32,000 nucleotides of DNA, taken from assembly GCA_030429145.1 (NCBI GenBank), contig JAUIDC010000001.1, forward strand, positions 450,001-482,000, written 5' to 3'. Below the pieces are notes generated by a model that was not told where the DNA came from, ran no database searches, and saw only the letters and a program-made list of their open reading frames with translations. Positions 1 to 32,000 of the stretch are shown here, piece after piece. Source of the stretch: Candidatus Saccharimonadota bacterium. Lineage in GTDB: Bacteria > Patescibacteriota > Gracilibacteria > Absconditabacterales > Absconditicoccaceae. Numbering within the stretch: the first letter of the stretch is position 1; each line of letters opens with the position of its first letter. A program made the translations under genes and the position numbers.

Positions 1-1
1 A

Positions 2-259
2 CGAAAGGTCGATCTCGATACTATGGAGCATGAGGTGGTACAAGAGATGAATGATGAGACAGTATTCGTTGATCAGGTATTTGAGGGAGAAGAGAGAGAG
101 AATAGCGTGCAGTTTGCATGGAAGAACGATACGTTGATCGTACATTATCAATGAAAGGAGCATGAAGTTGCCTTTAATGACCTCTGAGTAGAGCCTGAGA
201 AGACCATAGAAGCAAATTATATGATGAAGCCAAATGTGACCGTAAAGAAATTTCACTAA
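2..259 (+). CDS. 3' end of a hypothetical protein (N-terminus lies outside the window)
   Basis: The frame is open from the window edge to TAA 257-259 if TGA 152-154 and 185-187 are read as sense. A hairpin terminator follows directly. No family recognised. Confidence 0.45.
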
Positions 260-263
260 GCAG

Positions 264-292
264 AAAGCCCTGGATATGCCAGGGCTTTTTTG
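264..292 (+). terminator. Rho-independent terminator
   Basis: Stem GCCCTGG (267-273) / CCAGGGC (279-285), 5-nt loop, then a T6 tract. Confidence 0.75.
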
Positions 293-328
293 TGTCAGTG
301 ATTTACGTAAAAGATATATGACTACAAG

Positions 329-356
329 TTGAATTTGGTGGGTTGTCAGATATATT
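329..356 (+). promoter_or_regulatory. Candidate sigma70-type promoter for the Nudix gene
   Basis: TTGAAT (329-334), 16-nt spacer, TATATT (351-356), about 30 nt upstream of ATG 387. Confidence 0.35.
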
Positions 357-386
357 TGCGTGGTATTTACTCTATAGTCAGATGAA

Positions 387-953
387 ATGGAAATAGATAA
401 AAGAGTTCCTGCACATGCTAAAATAATGTATAAAGGCCAAAGACGAACAATCTGGCAGCGAGAACAACAGGGATTCAATGGAGAGAGTGAACTATATGAG
501 GTGGCACAGAGATTTGATAGTGTACAATGAATAGTCATAGATGGAGATAAGATTTTATTGCCACAGGAGTTACATCCCCGCCGAGAAAGGGAGCAGATAG
601 GGATGTTTGGTGGAATGATTGATGAGTGAGAAGAACCCTTGGTTGCCATCAAAAGAGAGTTTTTAGAAGAGGCAGGAATGACGGGTGATGTTTCCCATTG
701 GATGACTAGGTCTAAAACGGGTAATATGATAATGGATATGCACTATTATATCATTAGAAATCCAATTAAAATACAAGAGCCTCGCCATGAACCAGGAGAA
801 AAGATTGAGCTCGTCCGTTTTTCATTTGAAGAATTTTTACATGAGGTGGCACAACCTAGGTTTAGAAATAGTGATTTTGCTATGTATATCATTACAGAGT
901 ATATCCTGCCAGGGAAACAAAATGAGCTTAAAGAGCTATTATTTAGCGAGTAG
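387..953 (+). CDS. Nudix hydrolase
   Basis: ATG 387 follows an in-frame TAG at 375-377. Complete Nudix box G-MIDEG-E-EPLVAIK-REFLEEAGM. TGA 627-629 encodes a residue inside the box; a second in-frame TGA lies upstream. Ends in TAG. Confidence 0.85.
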
Positions 954-993: not shown

Positions 994-2658
994 ATGTCAG
1001 TAGAATTAGCAAACTTATTGTTTCCAAATGTGGAAGAGACATTAGAGGACTTGATGAAGCGTTATCCAAGACGTCCTGAGGGACAGATGGTGACGCGTTT
1101 TGCGCCTAGTCCTACATGATTTTTGCATATTGGTGGGGTGTCTACTTGATTGATTGCAGAGAGATTTGTGCATCAAGACAATGCTAACGGAATTGTATTC
1201 TTGCGTATTGAAGATACCGATCAGGAGAGATCTCTTGAAGGAGGAATAGATCTTATCATTCAAGGATTAAAGAATTTCCATATTCAGTTTGATGAAGGTC
1301 CATTGGGTGAAAACAATCAGGATGCTGGCAATTATGGGCCATATATTCAGTCGCAACGCAAAAACCTTTACCATGTTGTAGCGAAACATCTGGTAGCACA
1401 AGGAGATGCATATCCGTGTCGGATGACCTCTGAAGAGCTAGAAGCGACAAGAAAAAGCCAGCAGGACAATAAGAAAATTCCTGGTATCTATGGTTCTTAC
1501 TCTAAGTGGCGTGATGCATCGTTTGATGAACAGAAGAAGATGGTAGAGTCAGGAACTCCTTTTGTTATTCGCCTACGTTCTCATGGAGACATGACGAAGA
1601 GGGTGAAGGTATCAGATATTATTAGATGAGATATTGAGATGCAGGATAATTTCTTAGATGTTGTCCTTATTAAGGCAAAAGATAGTCTGCCAACCTATCA
1701 TCTGGCTCATCTAGTTGATGACTATCTTATGGGAACAACTCATATCATTCGTAGTGATGAGTGGTTGGCTAGTTTGCCATTGCACCTGCAGCTTTTTTCG
1801 CTCCTTGGTGTAAAACCACTACAATATGCACATGTCTCGCCGCTGCTCAAATTGGATGATGGAAAGAAGAGAAAACTTTCGAAGCGTAAAGATCCAGAGG
1901 CAAATATTGAGTGGTTTTTTGAACAAGGTTATCCAGTCGATGCGATCATAGAGTTTCTTATGAATATCATTGATCCTTCATTTGAAGAACGACAAAAGAA
2001 TAACCCTGAAAAAAAATATACAGATTTCGTTTTCCAGCTCTCTCATATGAATGAATCAGGAGCATTGTTTGATCTAGTCAAACTCGACTTTGTGTCAAAA
2101 GAGTGGATAGCAAAGCTTGATAAAAAACTGTTTGTAGAAAAGTGCCTAGAGTGGGCTCACAAGTATAGCCCTGAGCTTCATGAGAAGATGGTTAATAATC
2201 AAGAGTATACATTTAAAGCACTCAATATAGAGCGCTGTACGGAGCTTGATCCAAAGAGATTTACCAAATTTTCTGATATTGTTGAGCAGTTGCCAAACTT
2301 CTATGATGAGGTCTATGAGGCGAACTATGAGAATAAGCCAGAATTGCCTGAAAACGTGACACAAGAGATTATCAATAAGTTCGTGAGCGTCTATCTCGAA
2401 AAGATGGACCTTCATTTAGAAAAGGATGCGTGGTTTGAGCAATTTAAAGAGATCGCTGCAAATCTTGGAGATGGGATGAATTTTGCTGGAAATAATAAAG
2501 AGTTTAAAGAGTGAGGATATGTGGGGAAAATAGGAGATTTAGCTATGTTTCTGCGTATTCAGCTCCTTTTATCAAAGGCGACGCCAGATCTTTCCGAAAC
2601 CATGAAAGTAATGTGAGCGGAGAGGGTGAAAAAGAGGCTTCAGAAAGCAGTAAAATAA
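994..2658 (+). CDS. gltX: Glutamyl-tRNA synthetase
   Basis: Class I HIGH region RFAPSPT-G-FLHIGG, with that Gly encoded by TGA 1117-1119. Has a KLSKRK (KMSKS-like) motif and a GluRS-like C-terminus after reading through TGA 1627, 2512 and 2614. Ends TAA 2656-2658. Five in-frame TGAs in total. Confidence 0.93.
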
Positions 2659-2772: not shown

Positions 2773-3243
2773 ATGAAAAAACTTATTACATTGATCTTGT
2801 TGGTTGTTGTTGGGTGGTCGACTGTCTCGGCTATCAGCTTTTTCGATAATACGTCGAGTGTTTATACAAGAGATCAGCAAGATGCGGTAAAGACAGATGA
2901 TATCTGTGCGACAGATCCACTGAGATGTGGCATGGATAATCCAGGAAGTCGTATACAGGGACTCTATTACAATGGTCCAATTTCAACAGTCTATGAGGCG
3001 CAAAATCAGACGCTGGGATATGTGCATAATATCATCAATTGGGCGTTATCACTCCTTGGGCTGATAGCTCTTTGTTATCTTGTTTATCACGGATTTAATA
3101 TCGTGTTAGGTGTAGGTGATGAGGCAAAGACAAAAGCGTGATGGAAAGGACTGAGGACTGGAGCAATTGCTATCGCAGGTGTTGCGTTGAGCTGGTTTAT
3201 CGTGAGTCTTATCGTCTATATGATAGATCTGTTTATCCAATAA
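2773..3243 (+). CDS. T4SS-pilin-like small membrane protein (TrbC/VirB2-like: signal peptide plus two C-terminal TM helices)
   Basis: N-terminal signal peptide MKKLITLILLVVVGWSTVSA. Two hydrophobic helices are separated by the charged loop GDEAKTKA-G-WKG, whose Gly is TGA 3139-3141. The pattern resembles the CPR/Gram-positive T4SS pilin family as I recall it. Ends TAA 3241-3243. Confidence 0.6.
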
Positions 3244-3258
3244 TATTTGAAAACAAAA

Positions 3259-3723
3259 ATGAAAAACATAAAGCATAGAGGAATTCTTGGGTGGGTCATC
3301 GTGGCGATGATGAGCTTGATGCAGGTTGTGCCTGCTGTCAATGCTATCGATCGAGACCCATACTATCAGGAGATGGAAAACGCTGGAAGACCTACTGCTG
3401 ATGCAGGAAGTATCGTTGGTGACACCAATCAGCAGGGTAGTCTTTTAGAAACGCTTCTTGATGTATTTGATATCAACTACGCCGGAGATGGGAAAGCATT
3501 GAAATATGTACAGGTTGTGATTAATTATGTAATATCATTTGCTGCGTTTATTGCATTGATAGTTATCATCTATGGATTTTATATGATGTTCTTCCGTGAG
3601 CAGGATAAGTGATTTAGTTCTGCAAGGAAAACGATCATTGGTGCAGCGATAGCTCTCTTTGTGATAGGAATCTCTCGAATATTTGTTAACTTTGCGTTTT
3701 ACGTGTTCAATAGAGGAATTTAA
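3259..3723 (+). CDS. T4SS-pilin-like small membrane protein, paralog of the preceding gene
   Basis: Same architecture as the preceding gene, and the C-terminal halves align (YVxxxINxxxS...IAL...Y.GF ... loop ... GAxIA). The loop again contains an in-frame TGA (3610-3612). An alternative TTG start at 3247 is possible. Ends TAA 3721-3723. Confidence 0.6.
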
Positions 3724-3752: not shown

Positions 3753-4463
3753 ATGGCATTTAAACTCTTTAACTTCGAAAAAGGAAAGATACAGAAGGGG
3801 CAACGTGAGCAGGCTTTCAACACTGAAACGATGCTGCCTATTTCTGAGATCAGAGGAAATACAATGGTGCTGAAGGATGGTGGCCTGAGAGCTGTCATCA
3901 AGGTCTCTGGTCTCAATCTTGATCTCAAGAACTCTGATGAGCAAGAGATAGTCATCCAGCAGTATAAAAGATTTCTCAATGGACTGGATTTTCCTATCCA
4001 GATACTTGTTCGTAGTACCTATCTCGACCTGACACACTACCTCAACTATATGAAAGAAAATGTGAATGCGATAGACAATGATACGCTCAAGAGCCATGGA
4101 GAGCAGTATGTGTCATTTTTAGATGAGATTAATTTGGCACAAGGGTTGATCTATGTAAAGGAGTTTTACATCATTGTGCCGTATTATGACCAAGGAGGAG
4201 AAGATGAAAATCAAGTAAAGAAGTCATGGCGACAGAAGTTTCTCAATGTGTTGGAGAGTAAAGATAGTGCAGAAAAGATAGTACAGAGATATCGCTCGTT
4301 TGTGAAAAATAGAAAATTTTTGGATACGAGATGTGCGTTGATTATGGAAGGGTTGAAAGGATTGAATATTGATACGGAGAGATTGGCTCTGACTGATATG
4401 GTCTCGCTACTCTTTAAGTTTTACAATCCGACCATGCATAACGATCAGGCAGAGACAAAGTAG
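3753..4463 (+). CDS. Stand-alone VirB4/TraE-type N-terminal domain protein (no ATPase domain)
   Basis: LPISEIRGNTMVLKDGGLRAVIKVSGLNLDLKNSDEQEIVIQQYKRFLNGLDFPIQILVRS...FYIIVPY...RLALTDMVSLLFKFYNP matches the N-terminal region of Gram-positive VirB4-like ATPases (Tn916 Orf16 / pIP501 TraE type) as I recall them. The ORF stops at TAG 4461-4463 after 236 aa, and a terminator follows. Confidence 0.6.
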   Translation: MAFKLFNFEKGKIQKGQREQAFNTETMLPISEIRGNTMVLKDGGLRAVIKVSGLNLDLKNSDEQEIVIQQYKRFLNGLDFPIQILVRSTYLDLTHYLNYMKENVNAIDNDTLKSHGEQYVSFLDEINLAQGLIYVKEFYIIVPYYDQGGEDENQVKKSWRQKFLNVLESKDSAEKIVQRYRSFVKNRKFLDTRCALIMEGLKGLNIDTERLALTDMVSLLFKFYNPTMHNDQAETK

Positions 4464-4531: not shown

Positions 4532-5206
4532 ATGTTCGGGATAGTGGCGCTGATGTTAGGATTGCCTTGAGGTATGGCTTTGCAGCCATTGGTAGAGCAG
4601 GTTGACTCGTACGTCTACGCACAACAGGTAGATATTTTGACTGATGATAGTATCGCAAGATTTGTTGGTCCCAATGATCCGTTGACAACGCCTCGTTATA
4701 GGCCAGATGATCTTGTAGATTTGACCGATGCAGCATTTATTCGTGTGCAGTGAGGCATAGGATATTTGAGAAAAGAGGCCTTTGATCAGCTTGCAGATAT
4801 GGCGTATCATTTTTATGAGGTCTTTCAAAGGCATCTGACAGTGGTAAGCTCTTTTAGAAGTTATGGGCTACAGAATATGCTTTTTGAAGCATATACAGAA
4901 TCCCATGGGTTAGCGGCAGCAGCAACTTTTTCAGCATTGCCCGGCCGCAGTGAACATCAGCTCGGCTTGTCGGTAGACCTTTTTACCGCAAATGACGTAG
5001 ACGCGGCTGGCTATCAGGGCTATTATGACCGGCTCAGGAAAAGTGCTCACAAGCGATGATGGACGCAGTCATATCAGAAATGATCCCAAATAGACTGATA
5101 TATTGTAGAGCCGTGGCATCGGCGCTATGTGGGAGAAAGGCTTGCTACAGAGCTATATGAGCAGGAATTAACCTTTAGTGAATGGGTAGAGAGATATAAA
5201 AGATAA
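4532..5206 (+). CDS. D-alanyl-D-alanine carboxypeptidase, peptidase M15B (VanY-like)
   Basis: Zinc-site motifs SEHQLGLSVD and EPWHRRYVG, plus an N-terminal hydrophobic anchor. Five in-frame TGAs. Ends TAA 5204-5206. Confidence 0.85.
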
Positions 5207-5262: not shown

Positions 5263-5613
5263 ATGAAAAAACTACTTTTATTGGGCTTATTTGTCCTGCT
5301 TATTGTTGCTATTGTTTGCTCTACTGGGGCATTTAGGGATCTTACTCATTCCAATCAGAATGTTCGTACAGAGGTCTCAGACACTTCAGTTGTTGTTGCC
5401 AATGGTTCAACCGCCAATGACAGTGCATTTATGCACAGATTGGTGGCCCAATGGGAAAGCTTGAACTGGGATACTGTTCAGACTCCGCTTACCGTACAAG
5501 ATTCTCTCTTTATGGTCGATGCCGTAAAAACTTGGCAGACCTTTATTGGGGCGCCCAAGGGGGAGGGTTCTTTGTATCAGTGGGCTGACGCCTACATAAC
5601 AAAGCACCAGTAA
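5263..5613 (+). CDS. Hypothetical secreted or membrane-anchored protein
   Basis: Intact 116-aa ORF with signal/anchor MKKLLLLGLFVLLIVAIVCS, bracketed by a promoter and a terminator. Confidence 0.6.
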   Translation: MKKLLLLGLFVLLIVAIVCSTGAFRDLTHSNQNVRTEVSDTSVVVANGSTANDSAFMHRLVAQWESLNWDTVQTPLTVQDSLFMVDAVKTWQTFIGAPKGEGSLYQWADAYITKHQ

Positions 5614-5936: not shown

Positions 5937-6998
5937 TTATCCAATGAAATTGACTTCTGGTTCGATGGCTATACCAAGTTTGTCATGACACTCTTTTTGT
6001 ATTTTTCTTGCAAAGTGTAGTATCTCTTGTCCGCTTGCTCAGCCATAATTGACGATACATAGTGCTTGCTTCTCCCGGCATCCGACATTTCATTCGCGAT
6101 GGCCACGATAGCCTAGGACATGGTCTAGAACTCGTCCAGTAGGAATCTTTATGAACTCCTCATTGATAGGATAGTGTTCTATAGTGAGATCCGGTTTTAT
6201 GCGATGCACTCTTTCTGTAAAATCTTCAAACTCTTCCTGTGTGAGGACGGCGTTTTTGAAAAAACTTCCTCATGTTCCGACTTTATGTCGATCGGGTAGT
6301 TTCTCCGCTCTGATCTCGGTAATGGTATCAATCATATGACGAGGAGTGGGTTTTGTGATGCCTTTCTTTGCTAGCTCTTCGGCTACAGAGCCATAGTTAC
6401 TAATCGGAGCATAAGTGTCAGGATCAAAATGTTGTAGACGAAATGTAACGTCAGTGATGAAAAATTCATCCTTGCGGATTCCCTTAAAGATACTATCGCG
6501 ATATCCAAAGAAACACTCTTTATGCGAAATGGTCTCGTATTCCTTGGTCTCTAGGTTGTATCCTCATACGCTTACGATAGCATTACCTATCTCGGTTCCA
6601 TAGGCTCCAATGTTTTGAATAGGTGCGGCGCCAACCTTTCCAGGGATGCTTATTAAATTTTCTATACCATATAACCCATGGTCGATGGCTCGCTCTACAA
6701 AGGAGCTCCACTCTTCTCACGCACCTGCTTTTATAAATACTTCATGTTCATGGTCAGTCACGATCTCTTTCCCTAAAATATTGTTGCAGACAACCAGTCC
6801 ATCAAATGTTGGAGAGGTGAGCAGTATATTTGAACCTCCTCAGAGAAAGAGGATCCTTTCTTTATAGTGCACCCATTCACGACTTTGGAGTAACTTCAAA
6901 AAGTCTGCAGCTGTTTCGATAGAAACAAATTGTTTTGCCTTACAGTCTACATGAAAGGTGTTGTACTCTTTGAGTGAGATGTTATGTTGGATTTCCAT
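5937..6998 (-). CDS. murB: UDP-N-acetylenolpyruvoylglucosamine reductase
   Basis: Hand translation gives 353 aa with [27 protein letters not shown] and GT-G-GSFFKN. Six in-frame TGAs and no in-frame TAA/TAG. Ends TAA 5937-5939. Confidence 0.9.
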
Positions 6999-7250: not shown

Positions 7251-8300
7251 ATGGCAAGTAAAAACCAGGTATTGGATGAAGCGAGGAAGAACATTGAGAA
7301 GAAGTTTGGTAAAGGCGCTCTCATCCGCATGGGTGACAGTAGCAATGTATGACTGGTAAATACATTTCATTCCGGATCATATGTACTAGACCTTATTCTT
7401 GGTGGAGGATATCCAGAAGGACGTGTAGTAGAGATATACGGACCAGAATCATCAGGTAAGACAACCATAGCACTTCATGCGATAGCGGAGATTCAGAAGC
7501 GTGGGGAAACGGCTGCATTTATCGATGCGGAGCACGCGTTGGATCCTGCGTATGCACGTACGTTAGGTGTAGATACAGAAAATTTACTTTTATCACAGCC
7601 AGATTTTGGTGAGCAGGCGCTTGAGATTGCTGAAGAGCTTGCGAAGACGGGGGCTATTAAGCTTATTGTGATCGACTCGGTTGCTGCGCTTGTGCCAAGA
7701 GCAGAAGTAGAAGGTGACATGGGTGATAGTCATATGGGGCTCCAGGCTCGTATGATGTCACAAGGACTCAGAAAACTGACATCTATCATGGCGAAGACAG
7801 GAACAACTATAGTATTCATCAATCAGATTCGTATGAAAATTGGTGTGATGTTTGGTAATCCTGAGACCACAACTGGTGGTAATGCGTTGAAGTTCTACGC
7901 TTCTCAAAGACTCGAGATTAGACGCGGAGAGAAGATAGAAGAAAATAAGGAACTGATCGGATATGCAACGAAGGTAAAGATCGTAAAAAATAAGATCGCT
8001 GCTCCGTTTAGAAGTGCTGAGATACCAGTGAAATTCAAACAAGGTATCGACAGGGGGCTTGATATCATTGAAGCAGGACTTGCTCTTGGACTTATCGAAA
8101 AGGGTGGAGCTTTCTATACTCTACCAGGAAAGAAAGAGAAAGTGCAAGGTAAGGACAAAGTATTAGAGGTATTGAACAGCGATGAAAAACTTTATAACTC
8201 TCTCAATACAGATATCCAAAACAAGATCAAAGAGCTTCGTTCAGGTAAGAAAGTTCTTCCAGAAGAAGCTTTGGAAGAGATTGAAATGGAAGAAGAATAA
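7251..8300 (+). CDS. recA: Recombinase RecA
   Basis: KQFGKG-like N-terminus, Walker [10 protein letters not shown], then IDAEHALDP ... VIDSVAAL ... FINQIR. One in-frame TGA (7350-7352). Ends in TAA. Confidence 0.96.
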
Positions 8301-8336: not shown

Positions 8337-8371
8337 AAAAAACCGTCCTTTGCGCTTTGGGACGGTTTTTT
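8337..8371. terminator. Bidirectional terminator (recA / pilin)
   Basis: A-tract, stem CCGTCC (8343-8348) / GGACGG (8360-8365), then T6. Overlaps the pilin stop codon. Confidence 0.75.
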
Positions 8372-8930
8372 AGTATCCACAGATGTAATTGGTGTCGAAT
8401 CGCGTTGAGGCATTATATGTTGGTGAGACCTTTTCATCTCCGTTGTTGTAATGAATGTACGTCCGAGTAGTGGGGCTTTCTCTGAAGTAGCCAATGTGTA
8501 ATCACTCTCCAGTAATAGCTCCATTGATGCTATACTTATAACAAAAATAACGATAGGAGAATGTTCCGGTTCCAGCGCCAAATCCTGGGAGATGGACTGC
8601 ATTGTTAATGGGATCTACAGGGACGGTATTCATGATGCCTCCTGAAATAAGCCATATGAGAAATTGTCCTGATGAACTGTAATCCCGTCCTCATCGAGAA
8701 GCTATTTCGGTTCCTCCACTATATCTGTATGTGTGCATCAGAAAACCATTGTCCGCGTTGTAGAGAGAAAAAGCATTGTAGATTTGGCTCATGTCTGCTT
8801 TACGTTTAGCATCTCTTGCTCTTCATTGCACGTCTCTCAGTCTTGGTACAAGCGCCGCCGCCAAAATACCTATTATCACGATGACAATAAGCATTTCAAT
8901 AAGCGTAAATGATGGTTTTTTTGTAGTCAT
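8370..8930 (-). CDS. Type IV pilin / pseudopilin (class III signal peptide)
   Basis: N-terminus MTTKKPS-FTLIEMLIVIVIIGILAAALVP, with Glu at +5. Three in-frame TGAs. Ends TAA 8370-8372. Confidence 0.8.
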
Positions 8931-15668: not shown

Positions 15669-15887
15669 CTACAGTGCTACTCTTGTCTTAGACTTGATAG
15701 TGAGCACTTGTTTTCCTGCGTAGTATCCACATGAAGGACATACTCTATGAGATAGTTTATACTTTCCACAGTTAGAGCACTTTACTCTCTGGTATTTCTC
15801 AGTAAGTTTCACCAAATTGTTTCTGAGCCATGCAGAGTGTCTGATATGTTTCTTGTGTATCGAATTCTTTTTCCTAGGTACTGCCAT
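15669..15887 (-). CDS. rpmF: 50S ribosomal protein L32
   Basis: MAVPRKKNSIHKKHIRHSAW, plus zinc-ribbon cysteines CSNCG...CPSCG. I prefer ATG 15887 over the TTG at 15893. Confidence 0.9.
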   Translation of the reverse strand: MAVPRKKNSIHKKHIRHSAWLRNNLVKLTEKYQRVKCSNCGKYKLSHRVCPSCGYYAGKQVLTIKSKTRVAL

Positions 15888-20300: not shown

Positions 20301-23300
20301 TTATTCAATTTCTCCGTAGTCCTCAAGTTCCGTAATTACCGTTTCTATCATCTCCTTCTTGTCTTCTGCCTTTTGTTCTTCTCCGTCATCTGATCCGTTG
20401 TCGTCTGGACCTCCTTGAGATGTGATACCTCTAAGACCAAGCTGAAGGATCTTGTCTATACGCTCGTTATGAATTGCTTCGATACGTTCTTCAGTAAGTG
20501 GTTCGATATTTTGACCGAGACCCTTGAAGAGATACATCACGAGGTTGAACGATTCAGGAAGTCATGATATTCTCAGCTTGTTTCCTTTGATAATATTTTC
20601 ATATGTCTTATTTCTTCCTGTCACGTCGTCTGACTTGATAGTCAACATTTCCTGGAGCGTGTATACAGCAGAGTATCCTTCGAGTGCCCATACTTCCATT
20701 TCACCGAACCTCTGTCCACCGTCTCTTGCTTTACCACCGAGAGGCTGCTGAGTGATGAGTGAGTAAGGACCAACTGATCTCGCATGGATCTTGTCTTCCA
20801 CCATATGTGATAGCTTCAGGATGTGCATGAAACCAACTGTTACAGGATTTTCGTACGCGATACCCGATCTTCCGTCATAGAGTGTCATTCTACCATCTTT
20901 TGGTAGATCAAATCTTGTGAGAAGTCCTTGGAGATCGTCAACGCTAAATCCTGAGAAGAGAGGAACTGCAAACTTTGTTCCGAGTGCTTTCGCGACCAGA
21001 CCAAGCTGTGTCTCCAATACCTGACCCATATTCATACGAGAGATCACACCGAGTGGGTTGAGGATAACCTCAATTGACTGACCATCAGCAGTATATGGCA
21101 TGTCTTCTTCTGGTACTACATGAGCAATAATACCCTTATTACCATGTCTACCAGCGAGTTTGTCTCCGACCTCAATCTTTCTTGTCATAGCGATATATAC
21201 CTTGATCTTCTTTCTGATACCAGCCATAAGGTTGTCTCCTTTCTTCGAGTCGAGTACGAGGATGTTGATAACCTTACCTTCACTTCCAGATGGAAGGTAG
21301 AGTGATGTATCTTTGAGGGATTTTGATTTATCACCGAAGATTGCTTGGATGAGTTTCTCTTCAGGAGAAAGTTCACCTTCAGATTTAGGTGTAATCTTAC
21401 CAACAAGAATGTCTCCACCCTTTACAGTAGCACCGATTCTCACGATACCTTCTTCGTCAAGATTTTTCAATTTTGCCAATGAAACACCTGGGATATCGTT
21501 TGTCGTCTCTTCAGGTCAGAGCTTTGTATCGGCAACCTCGATCTCATGTTCTTCGATATGGATAGAAGTGAGACTGTCGTCTTTTACGAGCTTTTGTGAG
21601 ATAACGATAGAGTCCTCATAGTTGAATCCTTCCCATGGCATGAAGGCAACTCTCAAGTTTTTACCGAGAGCCATTTCTCCATCCTGGATAGATGGTCCTT
21701 CAGCAAGGATATCTCCTTTCTTTACCTTGTCTCCTACAGAAGCGATAGCCCTTTGATTTACTACAGTTTTCTGGTTAGATCTTTTGAAAGTGATAAGAGA
21801 GTACTCTTTGATTCCCTTCTTGTATTTGACTTTGATTCTCTTTCCGTCAACGTAGATAACCTCTCCGTCGTCTTCAGCTTGCATGACCGCGTATGTCATC
21901 CCTGCAATATCTGCTTCTAGACCCGTACCAACGAGTGGTGCATCATTTTGCAACAATGGTACTGCTTGTCTCTGCATGTTTGTCGCCATACCTGCACGCA
22001 CCGCTTCATCGTGGTCTACAAATGGTACCAAAGAAGTATTTGGTGAGAATATTTGAGAAGAGTTTACGTCAATATGCGTAATATCATTGACGTAGAACAT
22101 TTCCATGTCCATAAGGTGTCTCGCAGCAAGACGTTTTTCAAGGATGTTCTTGTGTTCGTCAAGCTGTGTAGAAACATCTGCTACAATGTATTTCTCATCG
22201 TATTCAGGCGAGATATATTCTACATCATCTGTGAGGAATGGTCTTACCCTTACCATAGTTCCTTTGTCGAGAGCTTTTTTGATAGCAGCAGCAGCTTTCG
22301 CATCGATATAGTTGTCGTCTTTTGCAAGGATCTTGCCTTTCTTGTCCTTAACATCGCCTTCTGCAATCTTTCCAACAAGGTCAGCTGAGTGAGCATCGAC
22401 TTCTTTTCCTACCTTGATAGCAGGAGTTTCAAGAAATCCTTCTTCATTTACTCTTGAGTAGAGGGCCTGATAAACTACGAGACCGATGTTCTGGCCTTCA
22501 GGAGTTTCAATAGGACAAATACGCCCATAGTGAGAAGGGTGTACGTCACGCACTTCGAACTTTGCTGTTTCACGCTTCAAACCACCGGGTCAAAGAGATG
22601 TTAGTCTTCTCTTATGTTCGATTTCTGCGAGTGGGTTGATCTGATCAAGGAATTGTGAAAGCTGTGACGTAGCGAAGAATGATTTGATCGAGTTGTCGAC
22701 GATCTTGAAGTTTACGAGGTCTGTCAACTTGATTTGCTCTTCAGTATTGAGGATAGAAAGCTTACCTTTGATAGACTTTGTGAATTTTCTCATCACAGGA
22801 GCAAGGTGAGAATAGAGGATTTCACCCATAGATCTGATACGTCTATTAGAAAGGTGATCGATATCATCAGCATAGTAACCTTTCTTGTCGTTCGCAATAT
22901 TCATAAGATATCTGAGTCCCGCTACGAGGTCGTCAGCATCAAAAATATTTGCACTATCATCGTTGATAGGCTTTGAGAGTCCAAGTTTTGCATTGATCTT
23001 TCTTCTAGCGACCTTACCAACAAAAATTCTTTCAAGTGTAAGGAACTGTGACTTGATGTAGTCAATAGCTGACTCTGAGTCGATGATTTCACCTGGTCTA
23101 ATCTTTCCATATATATGAAGAGCCGCAGACTCTGCATCGTGTGTAGAGTCTTTTTTGAGTGCAAATTCTACATAGTCGAAATCGTTTTCTTCAGGATCAA
23201 AACAATCCTTAAAGAGCTCGATAATGCTTTCGTCAGTCTCATACCCAAAAACTCTCAATAGTGCAATCACTGAAAACTTTCTTGACTTGTTGATTCTTGC

Positions 23301-23882
23301 TACTATGTTTCCAGATTTTTCAATAATAACTTGGAGCCAAGGACCTTTCTCAGGAATAAGTTTGAAAGAGTAGGTGAAGTCTTTCTTGTCGAAAGAGAAG
23401 AAAATACCGTATGATCTCACAAGCTGAGAGATGATTACTCTTTCTACGCCGTTGATGATGTAAGAACCCCAGCTAGTCATCAAAGGAAGGATACCGATGT
23501 TTGCGCGTTTGTTGAAAAGAACCTTTCCGTTTGAACTATCAGAAAGCTTTATTCTACCACTGATAATTCCACCATAGGTCATCTCTTTTTTCTTGCAGGT
23601 ATCTATATCTTCGATTGGATCACCAACTTTAATATCATCGATGATGAGACCTAGCTTATCACCTCCAATATCATGTATTGGGTTGATCTCCTCAAAAAGT
23701 TTGACGAGATAGTATTCAATAAAATCTTGAAATCCTTTCTGCTGCATACCGAGCAGTTCAGGAAACTCTGCAAACTTCTTCGAATCCTTCAAAAACACTC
23801 TTCCGTTTTTGATGAGATGCTTGTCGAATTCCTTTTCAAGTACGATTGCTGTTGGAGCAGATTTTTTAGTTTGTTTTGCCAT
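20301..23882 (-). CDS. rpoB: DNA-directed RNA polymerase subunit beta
   Basis: Start MAKQTKK at 23882. Four fragments share one frame and join via TGA at SL-G-PGGLKRE (22590-22592), DTKL-G-PEE (21516-21518) and S-G-LPESFN (20562-20564), all invariant Gly in RpoB. Ends TAA 20301-20303. 1193 aa. Confidence 0.97.
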
Positions 23883-24251: not shown

Positions 24252-24821
24252 TTAATTAGTGTAAGGCAACACACCCAACTCTCTTGCTCTGATGACAGCA
24301 GTTCTGATCTTCTTTTGGTGAGTTACTCTATTGCCCATAAATGCTCTTGGCTTGATATCACCGAATCTTGTCATGTAGTGTCTGAGAAAGTTTACAGACT
24401 TTCGATTCACATGAGCCAATGCCTCTTTTCCATTGAGGAAGCCTTTCTTCACAGCAGCCTCCTTAGGCTTTTTTTCTTCATCTTTCTCCCAAGCTTTATT
24501 GATTTCCTTGAAAGATACAAGCTTTTCATTTGTCTTCATGAGGAAGAAGGCAAATCTTACAAGACCTTTCATGATAGCAAAAGCCGATTTGAGCTTCTGG
24601 ATGTTTTCACCCGGAAGTTCTACATGGTAAGATACGAAGTATGCTTGTTTGATTCTTGCTTTTGTAATGTGATGCGCAAGATCCATCATGCCCATTTCAT
24701 CAGTGTCAATGATCTTTCCTCCGTTAGAAGAGAGGTGAGACTGAACATCAGCAATGATCTTTTCTTGATCGTCCTTACTAAGTTGCGGATGAATGAGGAT
24801 TACGAGTTCATAATGTTTCAT
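24252..24821 (-). CDS. rpsF/rpsR: Fused ribosomal proteins S6 (N-terminal) and S18 (C-terminal)
   Basis: A single uninterrupted 189-aa ORF. Residues 1 to ~95 (MKHYELVILIHPQLS...DEMGMMDLAHHI...) are S6-like. Residues ~130-189 (VNFLRHYMTRFGDIKPRAFMGNRVTHQKKIRTAVIRARELGVLPYT) are S18-like. A Lys/Glu-rich linker joins them. Confidence 0.85.
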   Translation of the reverse strand: MKHYELVILIHPQLSKDDQEKIIADVQSHLSSNGGKIIDTDEMGMMDLAHHITKARIKQAYFVSYHVELPGENIQKLKSAFAIMKGLVRFAFFLMKTNEKLVSFKEINKAWEKDEEKKPKEAAVKKGFLNGKEALAHVNRKSVNFLRHYMTRFGDIKPRAFMGNRVTHQKKIRTAVIRARELGVLPYTN

Positions 24822-24918: not shown

Positions 24919-25728
24919 CTAGATTGCAAATCTTTGGAAGTCAGCAATCTCAAGATTTCCCTGAGCAAAGTCTTTTACTTTTTTGCTGTCGTCCCAGATA
25001 GCTGATTGTTCGAGGAGTACAAAGTCAGAGAACTCTTTATCGAGTCTTCCTGCAACGATCTTTTCAATGATCTCAGCAGGCTTTCCTGAAGCTGCAACCT
25101 CTGCGCTGATCGCTTCTTTTGCCTGACTTACCTTATCAGCAGGAACAGTGTCCATAGAGAGGTATTCAGGGTTCATAGCCGCGATCTGAAGTGCAATGTT
25201 TTTTGCTACTTCTTCAGCATTGTCGCTAAGACTCTTGTAGTATACTACAGCAACGATCTTGTCTCCAGGATGAGTGTAGACAAAGGCATTTTCCGTACGA
25301 ATAAATGCGTCATCGAGCTTGATGTTTTCACCAATCTTACCAACAGTTTCATGCACAAGAGCGTCCCAAGACTGCTTTGTGTTTTCATCTACTTGATCGA
25401 GAGAAGAAAAGTCTTTGTCGTATTTTTTTACCTCTTCGAGAAGTCTGTTCGTAAGATCAATAAACAGATCATTTTTCGTTACAAAGTCAGTTTCGCAAGC
25501 AACTTTGATACCAACAACTCTGTTGTTATCATTGACTACTTTTACAATACCTTCATTTGTTTCTCTATCTGCTTTCTTTGCTGCCTGAGAAGCTCATTTC
25601 TTTTTAAGCCACTCCATAGCTGCATCGAAATCCCCGTTTGATTCTACGAGAGCCTCCTTACAGTCCTTAAGAGGAGCAAAACTGGTGTCTCTGAGCTTTT
25701 TGAGCAAGTTCATATCAACACTACTCAT
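24919..25728 (-). CDS. tsf: Elongation factor Ts
   Basis: N-terminal UBA-like LLKKLRDTSFAPLKDCKEALVESNGDFDAAMEWLKKK-G-A, with that Gly encoded by TGA 25594-25596. EF-Ts core follows. Ends in TAG. Confidence 0.92.
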
Positions 25729-25766: not shown

Positions 25767-26225
25767 TTATAATGTTTTTTCTGAGTCTGATGTCTCATTG
25801 GAATGTACAGAAGTATCTACAATCTCGATTTCTACCGAAAAGAGATCAACCATCCATCATCCAACTCCTTCGAAAAGAGGAAGGAAAATCTTATCCTTTG
25901 AGAATGAAGTGTATCTTCAATCCCACGCTTGCTTTGTAAGAATAATCCATATAGCAAGCAGAGCAGCATAGATGAGAACAGGCAGCACCTTAAGATAAGG
26001 AAGAAAGATGAGCACTATAGAGGGAACGAGCAATAAAAAGAATAACACTCGCCATCCCATTGCTTGTTTGCAATGAAAGAACTCATATCTGGTCATCTTT
26101 CCTTGTGTCAAAGATATCACAATACCTCGCAGAAAGTACATTAAGATGCTTTTTTTTCTTTCCAAAGCACTCGGTACATACTGCTGGGCAATTAGTTGAT
26201 CAATCTCTGTCTGCTGCTGAGCCAT
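25767..26225 (-). CDS. Small integral membrane protein (DUF4870-like, tentative)
   Basis: Hydrophobic segments around the motif YEFFHCKQAMGW. Extends through two TGAs to TAA 25767-25769. Its ATG (26225) lies 1 nt after the rpsB stop. Confidence 0.55.
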
Positions 26226-26226: not shown

Positions 26227-26889
26227 CTATGCGTTTAAGATATATGAGAGCGCGAAATCAAGACTTTGATAACTGTCTACATTCGCAACAACAAGACTAT
26301 CTTTGTCTCGCCATGTATCAAAGTTGGTTGATGCAATAACGATATTATCAAGACCTGTTTTATCAAGTTCTTTTACAAACTTCATCATAGACTTTCCATC
26401 AACAACGATAACGAGATCTGGTTTCTTCTTAAGGTTCTTTGCACCTTTGTAGATCCATTCGATTTTGTTGAGTTTTCTTTGATGAGTAAGTTGTTCTTTT
26501 TTAGTGAGCTTATGAAAATCCTCACTTTCAATGAACGATCTTAGTTCGTTCATACCTCTAATTCTTGTTACAAGAGTGTCAAAGTTTGTAAGGAAACCAG
26601 CAGGAACTTTGTAGTTGAGGTAGTGAAACCCACCTTTTGCAGCCATTTCCTCAATTTCGTCTGCATACAGGCTTTTTTCACAAATAACGAGGATCTCTTT
26701 ATTATCCTTCTTTGCTTCCTGTACTTTCTTTTTTGCTATTTCCAGCTGTTCAGCAATCTTGTCTGGATCGATGATAACAAGACCATTCTTGATATCAAGC
26801 CAAAATGACCTTGTCTTTGTGCTGGCAAGCTTTTTGATATTTCCAATATGCATGTGGGCGTCCATGACGTCCTTCTTTGTTACTGCCAT
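26227..26889 (-). CDS. rpsB: 30S ribosomal protein S2
   Basis: MAVTKKDVMDAHMHIGN..., VICEK, FLTNFDT and an S2-like C-terminal half. I prefer ATG 26889 over the longer ORF start at 26922. No in-frame TGA. Confidence 0.88.
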   Translation of the reverse strand: MAVTKKDVMDAHMHIGNIKKLASTKTRSFWLDIKNGLVIIDPDKIAEQLEIAKKKVQEAKKDNKEILVICEKSLYADEIEEMAAKGGFHYLNYKVPAGFLTNFDTLVTRIRGMNELRSFIESEDFHKLTKKEQLTHQRKLNKIEWIYKGAKNLKKKPDLVIVVDGKSMMKFVKELDKTGLDNIVIASTNFDTWRDKDSLVVANVDSYQSLDFALSYILNA

Positions 26890-27005: not shown

Positions 27006-27386
27006 TTACTTAAGGTTAACTGTAGCACCAGCTTCCTGAAGTTTGTTTTGCATAGTCTCAGCTTCTTCTCCTTTCACGTTTTCTTTGATGATAACAGGAG
27101 CTTTTTCAACGAGTTCTTTCGCTGCCTTAAGATCAACACCAAGAAGCTCTTTTACTACCTTGATAACTGCGATCTTTTGCTGACCAGCATCAGTAAGTTC
27201 TACGTTAGCGCTATCCTTAGCACCACCTTCGTCGTCACCACCTGCAGCAGCTCCGCCTCCTACTACCATAGCAGCAGCAGTTACACCAAATTCTTCTTCA
27301 AGAGCTTTCACGAGATCAGCAAGCTCTACAGCTGTAAGTTCTTTTACAAGATCAAAGATCTTTTGAGCGTTATCAGTCAATGTCAT
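27006..27386 (-). CDS. rplL: 50S ribosomal protein L7/L12
   Basis: [15 protein letters not shown], an Ala/Gly hinge, then [27 protein letters not shown]...EAGATV. Confidence 0.95.
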
Positions 27387-27436
27387 TCTAGTACAATAAT
27401 TTATAAAGTTAAAAAGTGTACATGAGTGTATAAGAA

Positions 27437-28192
27437 TTATTTATTTTCTTCTTCTTTTGGTTCTTCTGTAGCCTCTTCTTCGGTGCTAGCATTGTCAGTT
27501 GACTCTGCTGTCTCCGTAGGAGTCTCTGTGTCTTCTTTTTTGTCGGCTTCACTAGCGTCAGTTGAGCTTTCTTCAGTAGTAGCCTCAGCTGTAGTAGCTT
27601 CATCTGCTGCCGCAGGAGTCTCACTTTCTGTTGATTGCTCTTCTTTTACTTCCTGAGCAGGAGCTTCTTGTGTCGAAGTTCCTTCGTCGAGCTTGTTTTT
27701 AACAGCATCGAGCGTACCAACCAACTTCTGTACTGGATGTTTGAGAAGGAAAAGAAGTTTTCCAACGAGCTCTTCTTTTGAAGGAAGGTCAGCGAGTGTT
27801 CTTACATACTCAGCATCTTTCCACTCTTTGTCGAACCATCCACCTACATATTCAAATCCATACTTCTTGTCTGCTTTTTTAAGAGACTTGATGTACTTTT
27901 GCACCTCCTTGAGTGGTGCATACTCATCTTCTGTTGCGTAGAGTGCAACAACTGCGCCGTCAAGATCCTTATGTTCAACAACCTGATAGCCTGCTGACTC
28001 AAGTGATCTCAGGAAGAGTCTTTTTCTAATAACATTGAGTTTCCCTCCTACGTTGAGGACGTTCATTCTCAATGAGCTAGACTCGATAACAGGTATACCT
28101 GATTGCTTCAGGATAACCACGTTTGCAGCTGATGAGAGGTCATTTCCATAACCTTGTACAAGCTCTTTCTTTTTGTCTTTTGAAATAGCCAT
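27437..28192 (-). CDS. rplJ: 50S ribosomal protein L10 with an ~83-aa acidic low-complexity C-terminal extension
   Basis: [12 protein letters not shown]...[11 protein letters not shown]...LRMNV...LNVIRKRLF is L10-like. Residues ~169-251 are E/T/A/S/D-rich. I prefer ATG 28192 over the hydrophobic upstream extension. Confidence 0.9.
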
Positions 28193-28409
28193 AGCTTGCC
28201 CATCACATATAAAATAAAAAAATGTTCCTTGAGGTAAGAGGAACGGGGCTAACAAAAAATATTGCAGTGCAATCTTATCTGTAGCCAACTACCTCGGTAG
28301 GAGATTAAGTCAGTTCGTTACTGACACCTACTGTCTTTACTAATTGGTTTAGTTCGAAACGATTGCTCGAATCTGCAAAGAATATACTGATCTATAAGGT
28401 GAAATCAAG
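28193..28409 (-). promoter_or_regulatory. Structured 5' leader of rplJ, with a terminator-like hairpin (candidate L10-type autoregulatory leader)
   Basis: 217-nt non-coding gap. Minus-strand hairpins: TTCGA/TCGAA, GTCAG/CTGAC, CTAC/GTAG. A final GTTCCT/AGGAAC stem (28224-28244) is followed by ATTTTTTTATTTT, about 20 nt before the ATG. Confidence 0.4.
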
Positions 28410-30368
28410 TTATTTTTTCGATGTTTCCTCTTTCGCATCGAGAGAAAATGGAGTGGTTGGCAGAAGGTTTGCATTGAAGTTTTCTGCGAGGAATTTTGTG
28501 ATTTTGTCTTGATTGAGAGGGCTACTTGTGGTGATCTCTTTGTTGTTGACCACATAGGCAAGGAAGTTACGCATCTTCGTCCCAACATCACCCTTGTCGC
28601 CCAAAATATCTTGCTTGTCTTTCAAGTCTTCCTCACTTAGCTGAGTACCTTTGAGCATAAAGCTTCTGAAATCAGCACTCTTATTCATAAGATCATTAAA
28701 TGCTCTCTTAAATACCTTACTCTGGGCAGAGACTTGTTTACCTTTTGTTAATTCTCTTATCTTTTCGATGATGTTGTTTGCGCCTCCTGGTGTCGCTAAT
28801 ATCAATTGATTCTCATCGGGTATAGAGATATCGCTGTTGTATATTTCAGCCTCATTGACACCAAAGGTCTTTTTTACAGTCTTACCAAACTCACTACTAT
28901 AGAATTGACTTTGTAGTCTATCGATTTGATCTTGTTTTTTATTTGCATAGTAGCCGCCCTCAACATATGTCTGTTTCAAGCTTCTTCCTGTCTTACTCAG
29001 TCCTGCAATGGATGTGGCCTTTCCACCAAATGGGATCACATTGACATTGGTCACGAGTTTTTCTGATCGGTCAAAGATGCTGTTTGCTGCGCCCTTTGTA
29101 AACTTTGAAAAGTCTTTCGATATCTTTAAGAGAGACCAGAGTAGCACAATAGTAAAGCATGTCAGAATGAGATATCCTGTCATCCCGCCCACGAAATTAC
29201 CAACGCTCTTGAAGAGGTCTCCCTCAATAGTTATCTCAGTGCCACTATTACGATCGGCAATAGTAGACTGACTACTGTCAGCAGTAAAGGTGAGATTGTC
29301 TATAGATTCTTCAAATGTTGTACTACTTTGCTGGTTACCAGGATCTCAACCTAAAACATAAAACATACCAATACTGAGGATCATCACGAGTGCTAACGAT
29401 CCAATCATGACTACTGGTTGGAATACTAAACTTAACACATCTGTTAGTTTGCCAAACCCAAGCTTTTCTCCAGCAGTTTTGACAAATCCTGGAGATTCTT
29501 TGTCTCCAAAAGACCACGAGATAGCTGCAAGCGGTGCAAATGATATCCAAATCCAAAGTCTGAATATTCTGATCAGATTGATGACAATCAGAATCAGCAG
29601 AGGCACGCAAAATGCGAGAAGTAAGAATAGTTTGATGAATAGTCAAATAGAGAAGTTTTTGATATTGGTTACATCTTGGTTGAGTATGTCATAGTCTTGG
29701 AACCTGAAAATACTCGCTCCCATAAAGAGTAGTGGTCCACTCATGTTGTTGAAGCTACCAAACATGCTTTCGATGGTCTGCTTGCCCGTATATGTCTTAA
29801 TATGTTCATCATTTTTAGCAAGGCTGATCTCGACTCTTTCTGGTACCGTAACAGCCATCTGTGCCATCTTGCTTTTGCTCAGATTGTCAGTTGAACCCTG
29901 AATGAACTGCTGAGGAAATGCTCCGACTGCTGCAGTAGCGATGTTTGCTAGGTCGACAAAAGCACCCATGATAAACCAACTCATCTGGATGAGTACTCCT
30001 GCAAGAAGAAACCTTGGCAGTACTTTTTTTAGTTCAAATGCGTCTTTGCTGAAAAACGATTTGAGAATGCCCGCAAGAAAGAGAAATCACAGTATGAAGT
30101 TTGCTATGTTCTTCATATAGTTCCATAGCTTAAAGAGAGCGCTATCGAGATGGATGAATGTACCATAGATGAAATCATTGGACATAAGCTTCCCTGCGAG
30201 AAATGCGAGGAGCATCCATCCCCATGAAAGAACCTTTACTATGGCATTAAAGATTTCAACAGACCATGATACTGCAGGATCTCACTCGGCGGCAAAAGCT
30301 GGATGTATCCAGAAGAGACATCCTAGTCAGATTAGTATAACTAACGCTTTTGCGTGCTGTTTCATCAT
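28410..30368 (-). CDS. Large polytopic membrane protein (652 aa), tentatively VirB6/TrbL-like; paralog of the upstream gene
   Basis: Four ORF fragments share one frame and join through TGA (five in-frame TGAs in total). Signal peptide MMKQHAKALVILI-G-LGCLFWIHPAFA, at least 6 hydrophobic helices, and a ~230-aa hydrophilic C-terminal domain. Ends TAA 28410-28412. The ATG lies 2 nt after the upstream stop. Confidence 0.8.
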
Positions 30369-30370
30369 GA

Positions 30371-32000
30371 TTATTGGTTTGTTGTGTTAGTAGTATTGTT
30401 TGCGTTGTTGTCTTTATCTTTGTTTGTGTTGTTAGTGTTTTGTTTATTATTGTTGTTATTTTGAGATTGATCGTCTGCATTATCTGCGCCATCATTAGCA
30501 GATTTGTTGTCGTCAGCAGCAGTCTTATTTAACCATGTGCTAAATGGAGTAGCTAGAGTTGTGTTGTCTGGTTTCATCTTCTTCATTGTCTCTTTATCTA
30601 TAGTAGGAAGGAGTGACTCCCAAGAAGCCTCGTCTGTATAGTTTGTCTTAGCACTATTGCCTTTCTTTTGCGATACGAAACCATCTTTCGTCATAGTATA
30701 GGTTGTGCCATCGGGCATGACGAATGATTTATCTTTTAGCTCTCCTTGCGCTGTGGCCTGGCTTGCTTCCGCTGCAACCTGGTCGATTTTGACAGTGATG
30801 TCATCCTTTATGTCGTCTCTACCAGTATAGAAGTCTTTGATCTGCTGTGCGGTGAGTCCTGCGCCTCCAGCTGCGAGAGGAGTTGCGAGATATCTGACGA
30901 AATCATCGTTTTGGAATGCCTCGTTTACGCTCTTGAAAGGACCAATCTTTCTTGTTTCAGCAATTTTGTTTACGAGGTCCAGACTCGGCTGTCCGTATTG
31001 GCTCAGGTCGAGCTGATTACCTTGGAGAGTAATACCTGCATTGGATGCATTGTAGAGAGCTCCTGTCGGTCATACGAGCGACCCGATTTGCTTGTTCACG
31101 TCGGCGTTTGTTTTGATGCCAGCAATAGCGCTTTTAATCTGAGCCTGTCATTTACTCTTCTGATCGGTAAATGTACCCTGGAAGATGTTTTCAATAGTAG
31201 GGGAAACAACCGTTCTTGCATTTTCCTCTGAAGCTCTTTCGATCTGATTTCCGATCTTTGAGGTTGTGTTTTTCAGTGCTGCGATACTTGTTCCACCTCC
31301 GATAGGGATGATTTCTGCCGTAGAGACAGCATTGGTGGCAACTTTTTCTAGGCTGTTTACTACGCCTCCAGTAAACGATGTGCTCTTCATCGCTGTCATG
31401 ACGATCGTCCACATGAGTCCGGTTCCGAAGATGTTGAGGATAAGCCATGGAAAGAAGTCGAGCATACCTGACACACCAAGATCCTGCGAAGGATTGTCGA
31501 TACAAAGCGTCGTAACAACAAGATTGATACAGGTCTTGTTGTTTTCGTTGAATGTGTTCATGCCTACGTCTTCTAGGCTGTTTCCCTTTGTAAGTCATTC
31601 GCTGAGTACTGAAAGGAAGACGATACTAATACTGATGGCAAACGTAACGATCACAGGAAGGAAGATCATTGCAAGAGCGTTTTTTACTGCGAATTTATCA
31701 TAGTTCTTTCCGATTTTACTAAGACTAAATCAAAATACTTCACTGAGTACCAATACTGGCGAGAAAGCGATTGTGATCCAGAGGATAGCAATTCTAATGA
31801 TGAGTATCACACACAGTATGAGTAGTGGAACAAGATATGCGATACCTATGATAGCTTTAATGATAGACTCCATAGTCATGGCTCCTATCGACTTGTTGAC
31901 GTTGACATGGATACTTCCAAGGTTGAGAAGACTACCGTAGAGCGTGTAGAAAGCGCCTTGGTATCCTTTAGATTTTTGTACGATACTTGAAATGTTCTGA
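30371..32000 (-). CDS. Large polytopic membrane protein (N-terminus outside window) with a hydrophilic C-terminal domain and an Asn/Thr-rich tail; paralog of the downstream gene
   Basis: The frame is continuous from the window edge to TAA 30371-30373 with four in-frame TGAs (hand-verified codon by codon for 31150-30716). It shares ordered motifs with the next gene (LILxVIxxIRIxxLWIxIxFxP; xIPxGGxxTSIAxL). Confidence 0.8.

Follow-up and report, generated by a model that had tools for sequence, protein, structure and literature searches.

For the Absconditabacteria a variant genetic code has been predicted with Codetta in which UGA encodes glycine and CGA and CGG encode tryptophan (Shulgina & Eddy 2021, eLife, PMC8629427), and the same code has been restated for this lineage (PMC13092985; bioRxiv 10.64898/2026.05.03.722492). 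CGN codons are rare in these bacteria and AGA is the chief arginine codon, CGA and CGG being read by tRNA(UCG) and tRNA(CCG) and CGU and CGC by tRNA-Arg(GCG) (PMC8629427). The reading of UGA as glycine in SR1 and Gracilibacteria (translation table 25) goes back, in the account given by PMC8629427, to Campbell et al. 2013 and Rinke et al. 2013. We analysed a 32,000-nucleotide stretch of contig JAUIDC010000001.1 (assembly GCA_030429145.1, positions 450,001 to 482,000; hereafter the window, numbered from its first letter), the genes of which are very probably written in the published variant code of this lineage, with UGA as glycine, CGA and CGG as tryptophan and only UAA and UAG as stops. As the full code has already been published the novelty is low: the combined code is already known for Absconditabacteria, and the underlying biology is not new, UGA having been recognised as glycine in SR1 since 2013 and CGA and CGG predicted as tryptophan in Absconditabacteria in 2021.

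We built 30 gene models, most of them named through Pfam matches and all with their ends set at TAA or TAG, under which the coding density of the window is 0.895. Treating TGA as sense lengthens the open reading frames (ORFs), as an initial annotation made from the letters of the window had expected: the residues contained in ORFs that reach 100 amino acids or more climb from 11,345 to 22,276, as against only about 16,800 when TAG or TAA is set as sense instead, and same-frame pieces united across TGA join into full-length proteins with full-length Pfam domain coverage. We counted 56 in-frame TGA codons, in agreement with the approximately 55 claimed earlier, spread over 20 of the 30 genes including rpoB, rpoC, recA, tsf and rpmA. 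Each of the genes named earlier as cut at TGA carries at least one such codon and has its identity confirmed by Pfam, and the seven quoted positions (1117-1119, 10385-10387, 22590-22592, 21516-21518, 20562-20564, 16134-16136 and 25594-25596) all hold TGA on the coding strand.

We give practically no credence to a standard code under which the in-frame TGAs would be pseudogene lesions, assembly errors, selenocysteine codons or sites of programmed read-through. Fragment ORFs from standard callers do still match Pfam, and where public assemblies cover this DNA their standard-code gene calls fragment rpoB, rpoC, tsf and gltX. Against this, the interrupted genes include those for both large RNA polymerase subunits, RecA, EF-Ts and L27, and their pieces join to full length. 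Logan contigs from run ERR3428547, which represent two independent public assemblies of this DNA, show no mismatches to the window, and TGA or GGN is kept at the sites in six relatives from independent assemblies. No model ends in TGA (21 end in TAA and nine in TAG), although this follows from the placement of the ends at TAA or TAG and is thus no test of the models. The sites moreover align to glycine, not to cysteine or selenocysteine. Selenocysteine recoding was rejected on the same ground, the 56 sites in 20 housekeeping and membrane genes aligning to glycine; cysteine appears only at vanY codon 189, in five of six homologs of a small set, where the large set has glycine in 103 of 149. An Rfam scan at gathering thresholds, with no search specific to selenocysteine insertion sequence (SECIS) elements, returned an L10 leader only and no SECIS.

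The outgroup consisted of 75 distant bacteria drawn from an RpoB scan of species-representative genomes and was taken as a standard-code set. Large outgroup alignments were made for five genes (rpoB, rpoC, murB, murC and vanY), the vanY family representatives being gathered with the public protein copy P0121 as query, and alignments to PDB structures supplemented gltX, rpmA, tsf, mscS, recA and the NUDIX hydrolase gene. Over both kinds of alignment 31 TGA sites can be aligned; glycine is the most frequent residue of the outgroup at 21 of them and tryptophan at none, a tabulation that excludes translation table 4. In the five large alignments glycine leads in 14 of the 21 TGA columns and tryptophan again in none, with a mean glycine frequency of 0.59 in TGA columns, of 0.67 where the window has GGN and of 0.03 where it has any other codon. 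The same RpoB scan supplied five close relatives (L003 to L007, 76-90% rpoB identity), to which a sixth, L083, was added; codon exchange with relatives was counted on alignments masked at the recoded codons. Window TGA codons pair with GGN 47 times, with TGA 20 times and with TGG never in L003 to L007, and the exchange pattern of TGA is the same in L083 over gltX, murB, murC and vanY.

Glycine is invariant in the outgroup at rpoB TGA431 and TGA789 (75 of 75 each) and is found in 60 of 75 at TGA1107, while relatives have TGA or GGN at the rpoB sites. In rpoC, TGA1091 aligns to glycine in 41 of 43 outgroups, the remaining two TGA sites lie in gappy regions, and relatives show GGN or TGA. The last of these, TGA1268 (16387-16389, minus strand), is the third-last codon of the gene within a variable C-terminus and is also TGA in L003 and L083. 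Glycine occupies murB TGA53, TGA94 and TGA303 in 97, 115 and 93 of 115 outgroups, murC TGA7, TGA30 and TGA460 in 23 of 23 each and TGA46 in 12 of 18, and vanY TGA176, TGA184 and TGA189 in 113, 78 and 103 of 149 family representatives. Tryptophan makes up most of the non-glycine residues at the vanY sites, for which recoded relatives translated with table 4 are the likeliest source. Elsewhere in murB, TGA145 falls in a variable column (glutamate in 67 of 115), TGA243 in one with serine (82) or alanine (33) and TGA320 in one with asparagine (62) or glycine (26). The claim that the TGAs mark invariant glycines therefore needs qualifying: glycine is the commonest residue at the majority of alignable sites and not at others, among them the murB motif GT-G-GSFFKN with its serine or alanine in the outgroup, and the rpoB codon at 20562 has glycine at 80% only.

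Similar results were obtained from the PDB alignments. The five TGA sites of gltX align to glycine, alanine, glycine, a poorly aligned stretch and glycine (glycine at codons 42, 212 and 541) and read GGA, GGG, GGT, TGA and GGG in L083. TGA22 of rpmA corresponds to glycine in four of four L27 alignments and is kept as TGA in all five relatives covering the gene (L003, L005, L006, L007 and L083), whereas tsf TGA45 matches glycine in four alignments (one to 1aip, three to E. coli EF-Ts constructs) and is GGG, GGT, GGG and GGG in relatives. MscS TGA176 corresponds to glycine in four of four channels and NUDIX TGA81 to the Nudix-box glycine of ADP-ribose pyrophosphatases. RecA TGA34 lies in a variable loop with aspartate or a gap in PDB RecAs, and is also TGA in L083; together with mscS TGA139, mscS CGA150 and NUDIX CGA20, CGA25 and CGA66 it sits in a variable column where the PDB alignments are uninformative. 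Taken together these comparisons strongly support the reading of UGA as a glycine sense codon.

Table 4, the code of Mycoplasmatales and several insect endosymbionts with UGA as tryptophan, gives a coding density equal to that of table 25, and public protein data appear at first sight to favour it. NCBI-source copies of MurB (P0001) and VanY (P0121) on a 936,577-bp contig match the window translation except for tryptophan at all 11 UGA codons, as a coding-density heuristic (CheckM, GTDB-Tk) would yield, and arginine at all seven CGA and CGG codons; these copies were therefore translated with table 4. The absence of tryptophan as commonest residue from every alignable TGA site and of any TGA-TGG pair among relatives, compared with 47 TGA-GGN pairs, makes such a code exceedingly improbable here, and conserved tryptophan columns carry TGG, CGA or CGG instead.

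The second departure concerns CGA and CGG, of which the window has 24 and nine respectively. These 33 codons are spread over 15 genes, and rpoB and rpoC contain neither. Per 10,000 codons AGA occurs 222 times, CGA 25, CGG 9.5 and TGG 86. In the nine alignable CGA/CGG columns of the outgroup alignments tryptophan is commonest at five and arginine at none; mean tryptophan frequency in CGA/CGG columns is 0.39 and mean arginine frequency 0.04, compared with tryptophan at 0.46 in TGG columns and arginine at 0.57 for AGR and CGY codons. The clearest sites are murB CGA289, which is tryptophan in 112 of 115 outgroups, and vanY CGG167, tryptophan in 122 of 150. VanY CGG197 has tryptophan in 85, murB CGA103 has tryptophan in 67, tyrosine in 33, phenylalanine in 11 and arginine in two of 115, and murC CGA318 has tryptophan in 12 and glycine in seven of 23. 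Several further columns are occupied by aromatic residues or histidine. These include vanY CGA175 (tyrosine 105, phenylalanine 37 among 149 family representatives), gltX CGG143 (tyrosine in one and phenylalanine in four of five GluRS structures) and murB CGG308 (histidine 97, tyrosine 18 among 115, with TGG in L083). At murC CGG241 the five commonest residues of SR1-like homologs are phenylalanine (46), isoleucine (11), tyrosine (9), tryptophan (8) and leucine (8), arginine not being among these.

Exchange with the relatives points the same way. Window CGA and CGG codons pair with TGG 13 times, with CGA or CGG three times and with arginine codons never in L003 to L007, and all 13 of the TGG pairs involve CGA, which taken alone likewise has no arginine pair. 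L083 contributes two further TGG pairs, and AGA, AGG, CGT and CGC never appear opposite these codons in any of the six relatives. The window's AGA, AGG, CGT and CGC codons, in contrast, stand opposite arginine codons of the relatives 625 times and opposite TGG not once. Conversely, relatives place CGA 15 times and CGG 12 times opposite window TGG, and L083, where CGG is almost the sole CGR codon, places CGG there 19 times. Single genes illustrate the exchange: CGA140 in the S18 part of an S6-S18 fusion is tyrosine in PDB S18 and TGG in four of four relatives, and the CGA of rpsB is TGG in three relatives and CGA in one. All other codons present in rpoB and rpoC are standard against 43 to 75 outgroups. 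The 24 CGA and nine CGG codons behave as tryptophan rather than arginine codons. Table 25 as proposed in the initial annotation therefore holds for UGA and is incomplete, as the 33 CGA and CGG codons in 15 genes act as tryptophan and not as arginine.

That CGA and CGG nevertheless remain arginine, with only UGA reassigned, we regard as very unlikely. Its UGA component is fully supported, gltX CGA333 aligns to lysine or arginine where the PDB GluRS sequences are variable, and public translations of the relatives do show arginine at CGA and CGG, although this is an artefact because those proteins were translated with standard arginine codons. The column frequencies argue against it (arginine at 0.04 and tryptophan at 0.39, compared with arginine at 0.57 for true arginine codons), as do the 15 TGG pairs and the lack of any pairing with AGA, AGG, CGT or CGC in six relatives, and the near-invariant tryptophan columns MurB 289 and VanY 167 are written CGA or CGG. 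An ambiguous or transitional state, in which CGA, CGG or both are read partly as tryptophan and partly as arginine or are read inefficiently, also seems improbable. It would fit the rarity of the codons and their absence from rpoB and rpoC, the position of several CGA sites in variable or hydrophobic columns, and the treatment in PMC8629427 of intermediate stages and of a complicated CGG history in the sister clade Gracilibacteria. However, the tryptophans at MurB 289 and VanY 167 are near-invariant and presumably essential, CGA and CGG make up 33 of the 115 tryptophan-type codons in the window (29%), a share whose misreading as arginine would come at a high cost, and exchange with arginine codons in relatives is zero.

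Certain observations weigh against assigning the complete published code to the window. About one third of the TGA sites and several CGA/CGG sites fall in uninformative variable columns (for example murB 145 and recA 34), the uninformative CGA columns being murB CGA237 (proline), murC CGA69 (isoleucine or valine), mscS CGA150 and NUDIX CGA20, CGA25 and CGA66. Direct outgroup support for CGG comes from a few sites (vanY 167 and 197, gltX 143, murB 308), fewer than for CGA. The site-by-relative pairs are non-independent events, and low-level dual decoding would be compatible with a comparison of sequences. The G+C content of 0.404 (40.4%), which describes one 32-kb stretch rich in conserved genes, lies slightly above the 0.26-0.38 reported for CGA/CGG-reassigned clades; low G+C goes along with the reassignment and does not define it. 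ARAGORN found no tRNA genes in the window, in flanks of about 6 kb (L001 and L002) or in the loci of L003 to L007 and L083.

If decoding follows the clade literature (PMC8629427), UGA would be read by a tRNA-Gly(UCA) following the loss of release factor 2, and CGA and CGG by tRNA(UCG) and tRNA(CCG) bearing tryptophan identity elements. Expected features would be G1:C72, C2:G71, G3:C70 and U73 in the first of these tRNAs and G73 without A20 in the other two. CGU and CGC would remain arginine through tRNA-Arg(GCG), and AGA would serve as the chief arginine codon. No release-factor gene lies within the 32 kb of the window, a span that cannot show genome-wide absence. In the more distant SR1-like MurC loci (L084 to L092) ARAGORN returned only a tRNA-Leu(CAA).

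The best RpoB matches are metagenome-assembled genomes (MAGs) at 90% identity, some of them mislabelled, and a 'Candidatus Absconditabacterales' MAG at 76%. MurC homologs with names at 39-44% identity belong to candidate division SR1, Candidatus Absconditabacteria and Absconditabacterales, whereas those labelled Gracilibacteria reach only 31-33%. By these protein matches the source lineage is Absconditabacteria (candidate division SR1), and the closest named homologs bear out the SR1/Absconditabacteria context given in the initial annotation. L003 (OZ246420.1) is a complete chromosome of 1,107,293 bp listed under the name 'uncultured Candidatus Peribacteria', which the NCBI taxonomy places in the phylum Peregrinibacteriota. 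Its RpoB is 90% identical to that of the window, and TGA/GGN and CGR/TGG exchange is seen here too; the 'Peribacteria' label is probably wrong, and the chromosome would be suited as a reference genome for the lineage. Some contigs of the distant SR1-like population (L084, L086, L087 and L092) have between ssb and murC an insert, about 7 kb long, that L085, L088 and L091 lack; it adjoins the tRNA-Leu(CAA), encodes a resolvase, a protein with a P63C domain and a zinc-ribbon protein of the IS1595 type, and has the appearance of an integrative element.

It is possible, if rather doubtful, that a sublineage made up of this organism and its close relatives has gone further in the capture of CGA and CGG by tryptophan, and at higher G+C, than most published Absconditabacteria. 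The 29% share of CGA and CGG among tryptophan-type codons, a G+C of 0.40 and the predominance of CGG in L083 point to this reading, the relatives including the complete 1.1-Mb 'Candidatus Peribacteria' chromosome. If it is true, the reassignment would be tied less closely to very low G+C and near-extinct codons.

The choice of code has direct consequences for annotation. The standard code breaks 20 of the 30 genes in the window. Table 4, the choice of density-based pipelines, turns 56 glycines into tryptophans, and table 25 still turns 33 tryptophans into arginines, including the near-invariant MurB and VanY tryptophans. Annotation, structure prediction and phylogeny that draw on such proteins carry the same errors.

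The 30 gene models are listed in Table 1. By function they divide into translation and transcription (gltX, rpoB, rpoC, tsf, nusB, rnc), ribosomal proteins (L32, L27, S2, L7/L12, L10, S6-S18), cell wall (murB, murC, vanY), further housekeeping genes (recA, secF, mscS, NUDIX), pilin-like genes (with the TraC-like gene) and several hypothetical or membrane proteins. The NUDIX hydrolase gene (387-953, plus strand) was missing from the initial annotation. The partial ORF at the left edge extends upstream into the flanking contig L001, a standard-code call of it ends at the first TGA, and its two TGA sites are GGG and GGA in L083. Adjoining gltX is a cluster of small pilin-like genes (T4SS_pilin, TrbC/VirB2-like) with a TraC-like gene at 2773-4463 on the plus strand. 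An extra T4SS_pilin gene lies just upstream of the window (L001 5549-5902) and the pilin cluster is syntenic in L083, where the TrbC/VirB2-like gene has GGC at its TGA site and TGG at CGA140. The secF TGA site is GGA in L003 and GCA in L083. The fused S6-S18 gene is a single ORF of 189 amino acids with neither stop nor frameshift between its parts, and it can be aligned in one piece (residues 1-188) in L003, L005, L006 and L007. In the hypothetical membrane protein at 25767..26225 relatives have GGN at both TGAs; at either CGA three relatives carry TGG and the fourth has CGG or CGA.

The rplJ protein is identical on Logan contig ERR3428547_6724, and immediately upstream of the gene lies an L10 leader (Rfam RF00557, 28208-28358, minus strand) that scores 48 bits, the gathering threshold being 44. 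The L10 operon is directly preceded by the genes of two neighbouring large membrane proteins (28410-31999, minus strand), which show 39-69% identity in relatives. At TGA sites of the first, relatives have mostly GGN or TGA, with TTT, CTT or CTA at its CGA site; those of the second are mostly TGA or GGN. Near position 16000 gene orientation flips to an uninterrupted run of minus-strand genes. GC skew shifts there, being positive over 1-16 kb and mostly negative over 16-30 kb, a change that could reflect coding-strand bias or a replication landmark.

Table 1 Gene models of the window with their strand, basis and recoded codons
Feature	Position	Strand	Basis	TGA	CGA/CGG
Unannotated ORF, 3' end (5' part outside window)	2..259	+		152-154, 185-187	CGA 2-4
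NUDIX hydrolase	387..953	+	Pfam NUDIX, E 3e-9	528-530, 627-629	CGA 444-446, 459-461, 582-584
gltX (glutamyl-tRNA synthetase)	994..2658	+	Pfam tRNA-synt_1c	1117, 1147, 1627, 2512, 2614	CGG 1420; CGA 1990
T4SS-pilin-like	2773..3243	+	Pfam PF18895	3139-3141 (GGC in L083)	
TrbC/VirB2-like pilin	3259..3723	+	Weak Pfam TrbC match	3610-3612	CGA 3352, 3676
TraC-like	3753..4463	+	Pfam PF26593 (precomputed, identical Logan protein)	none	CGA 4230-4232
VanY-type D-Ala-D-Ala carboxypeptidase	4532..5206	+	Pfam VanY	4568, 4751, 5057, 5081, 5096	CGG 5030, 5120; CGA 5054
Hypothetical secreted protein	5263..5613	+	ORF model, no Pfam match	none	none
murB	5937..6998	-	Pfam MurB_C, FAD_binding_4	6840, 6717, 6564, 6270, 6090, 6039	CGA 6690, 6288, 6132; CGG 6075
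recA	7251..8300	+	Pfam RecA, E 1e-124	7350-7352	
Type IV pilin-like (N-terminal methylation motif)	8370..8930	-	Pfam N_methyl	8823, 8691, 8502	CGA 8694, 8400; CGG 8685, 8463
murC	8996..10405	-	Pfam Mur_ligase_M, Mur_ligase_C	10385, 10316, 10268, 9521, 9143, 9026, 9023	CGA 10199, 9875, 9452; CGG 9683
MscS-type channel	10863..11942	+	Pfam MS_channel domains	11277, 11388	CGA 10887, 11310; CGG 11094
secF	12007..12960	-	Pfam SecD_SecF_C	12889-12891	
rnc (RNase III)	12990..13733	-	Pfam Ribonuclease_3, dsrm	none	none
Hypothetical protein	13908..14402	+	ORF model, no Pfam match		CGG 14253-14255 (GTG in L003)
nusB	14448..15011	-	Pfam NusB	14526-14528 (GGC, GGA, GGC in relatives)	
Hypothetical membrane protein	15138..15575	+	ORF model	none	none
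rpmF (L32)	15669..15887	-	Pfam Ribosomal_L32p	none	none
rpmA (L27)	15921..16199	-	Pfam L27	16134-16136	
rpoC	16378..20190	-		17104, 16918, 16387	
rpoB	20301..23882	-		22590, 21516, 20562	
Fused rpsF-rpsR (S6-S18)	24252..24821	-	Pfam S6 (residues 3-92), S18 (141-185)		CGA 24402-24404
tsf (EF-Ts)	24919..25728	-	Pfam EF_TS	25594-25596	
Hypothetical membrane protein	25767..26225	-		25917, 25857	CGA 26127, 26049
rpsB (S2)	26227..26889	-	Pfam S2		CGA 26308-26310
rplL (L7/L12)	27006..27386	-	Pfam match	none	none
rplJ (L10)	27437..28192	-	Pfam match	none	none
Large membrane protein (652 aa), family unknown	28410..30368	-	No Pfam match	30327, 30282, 30087, 29643, 29346	CGA 29067
Large membrane protein (>542 aa), 5' end outside window	30371..31999	-	No Pfam match	31730, 31595, 31148, 31070	

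Compared with the Absconditabacteria code of PMC8629427, all three reassignments are recovered in the window, which is likewise dominated by AGA, with CGA and CGG rare and CGA the commoner of the two; the CGG frequency of 9.5 per 10,000 is slightly over the published '<7 in all but one species'. Table 25 and the window are alike in UGA as glycine and, with the gene ends set at these codons, in UAA and UAG as sole stops, but the arginine that table 25 assigns to CGA and CGG fails at the 33 codons. Table 4, used by Mycoplasmatales, Entomoplasmatales and some insect endosymbionts, also has UGA as sense and gives identical ORF lengths and density, so that density-based tools choose it; UGA is however tryptophan there, whereas in the window it aligns to glycine and swaps with GGN and never with TGG. 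Among the Bacillota, Anaerococcus and Onthovivens (PMC8629427, PMC13092985) have likewise changed CGG from arginine to tryptophan in a setting of rare CGN codons, but in these CGA stays arginine and UGA stays a stop, whereas in the window CGA and CGG have both changed and UGA is recoded.

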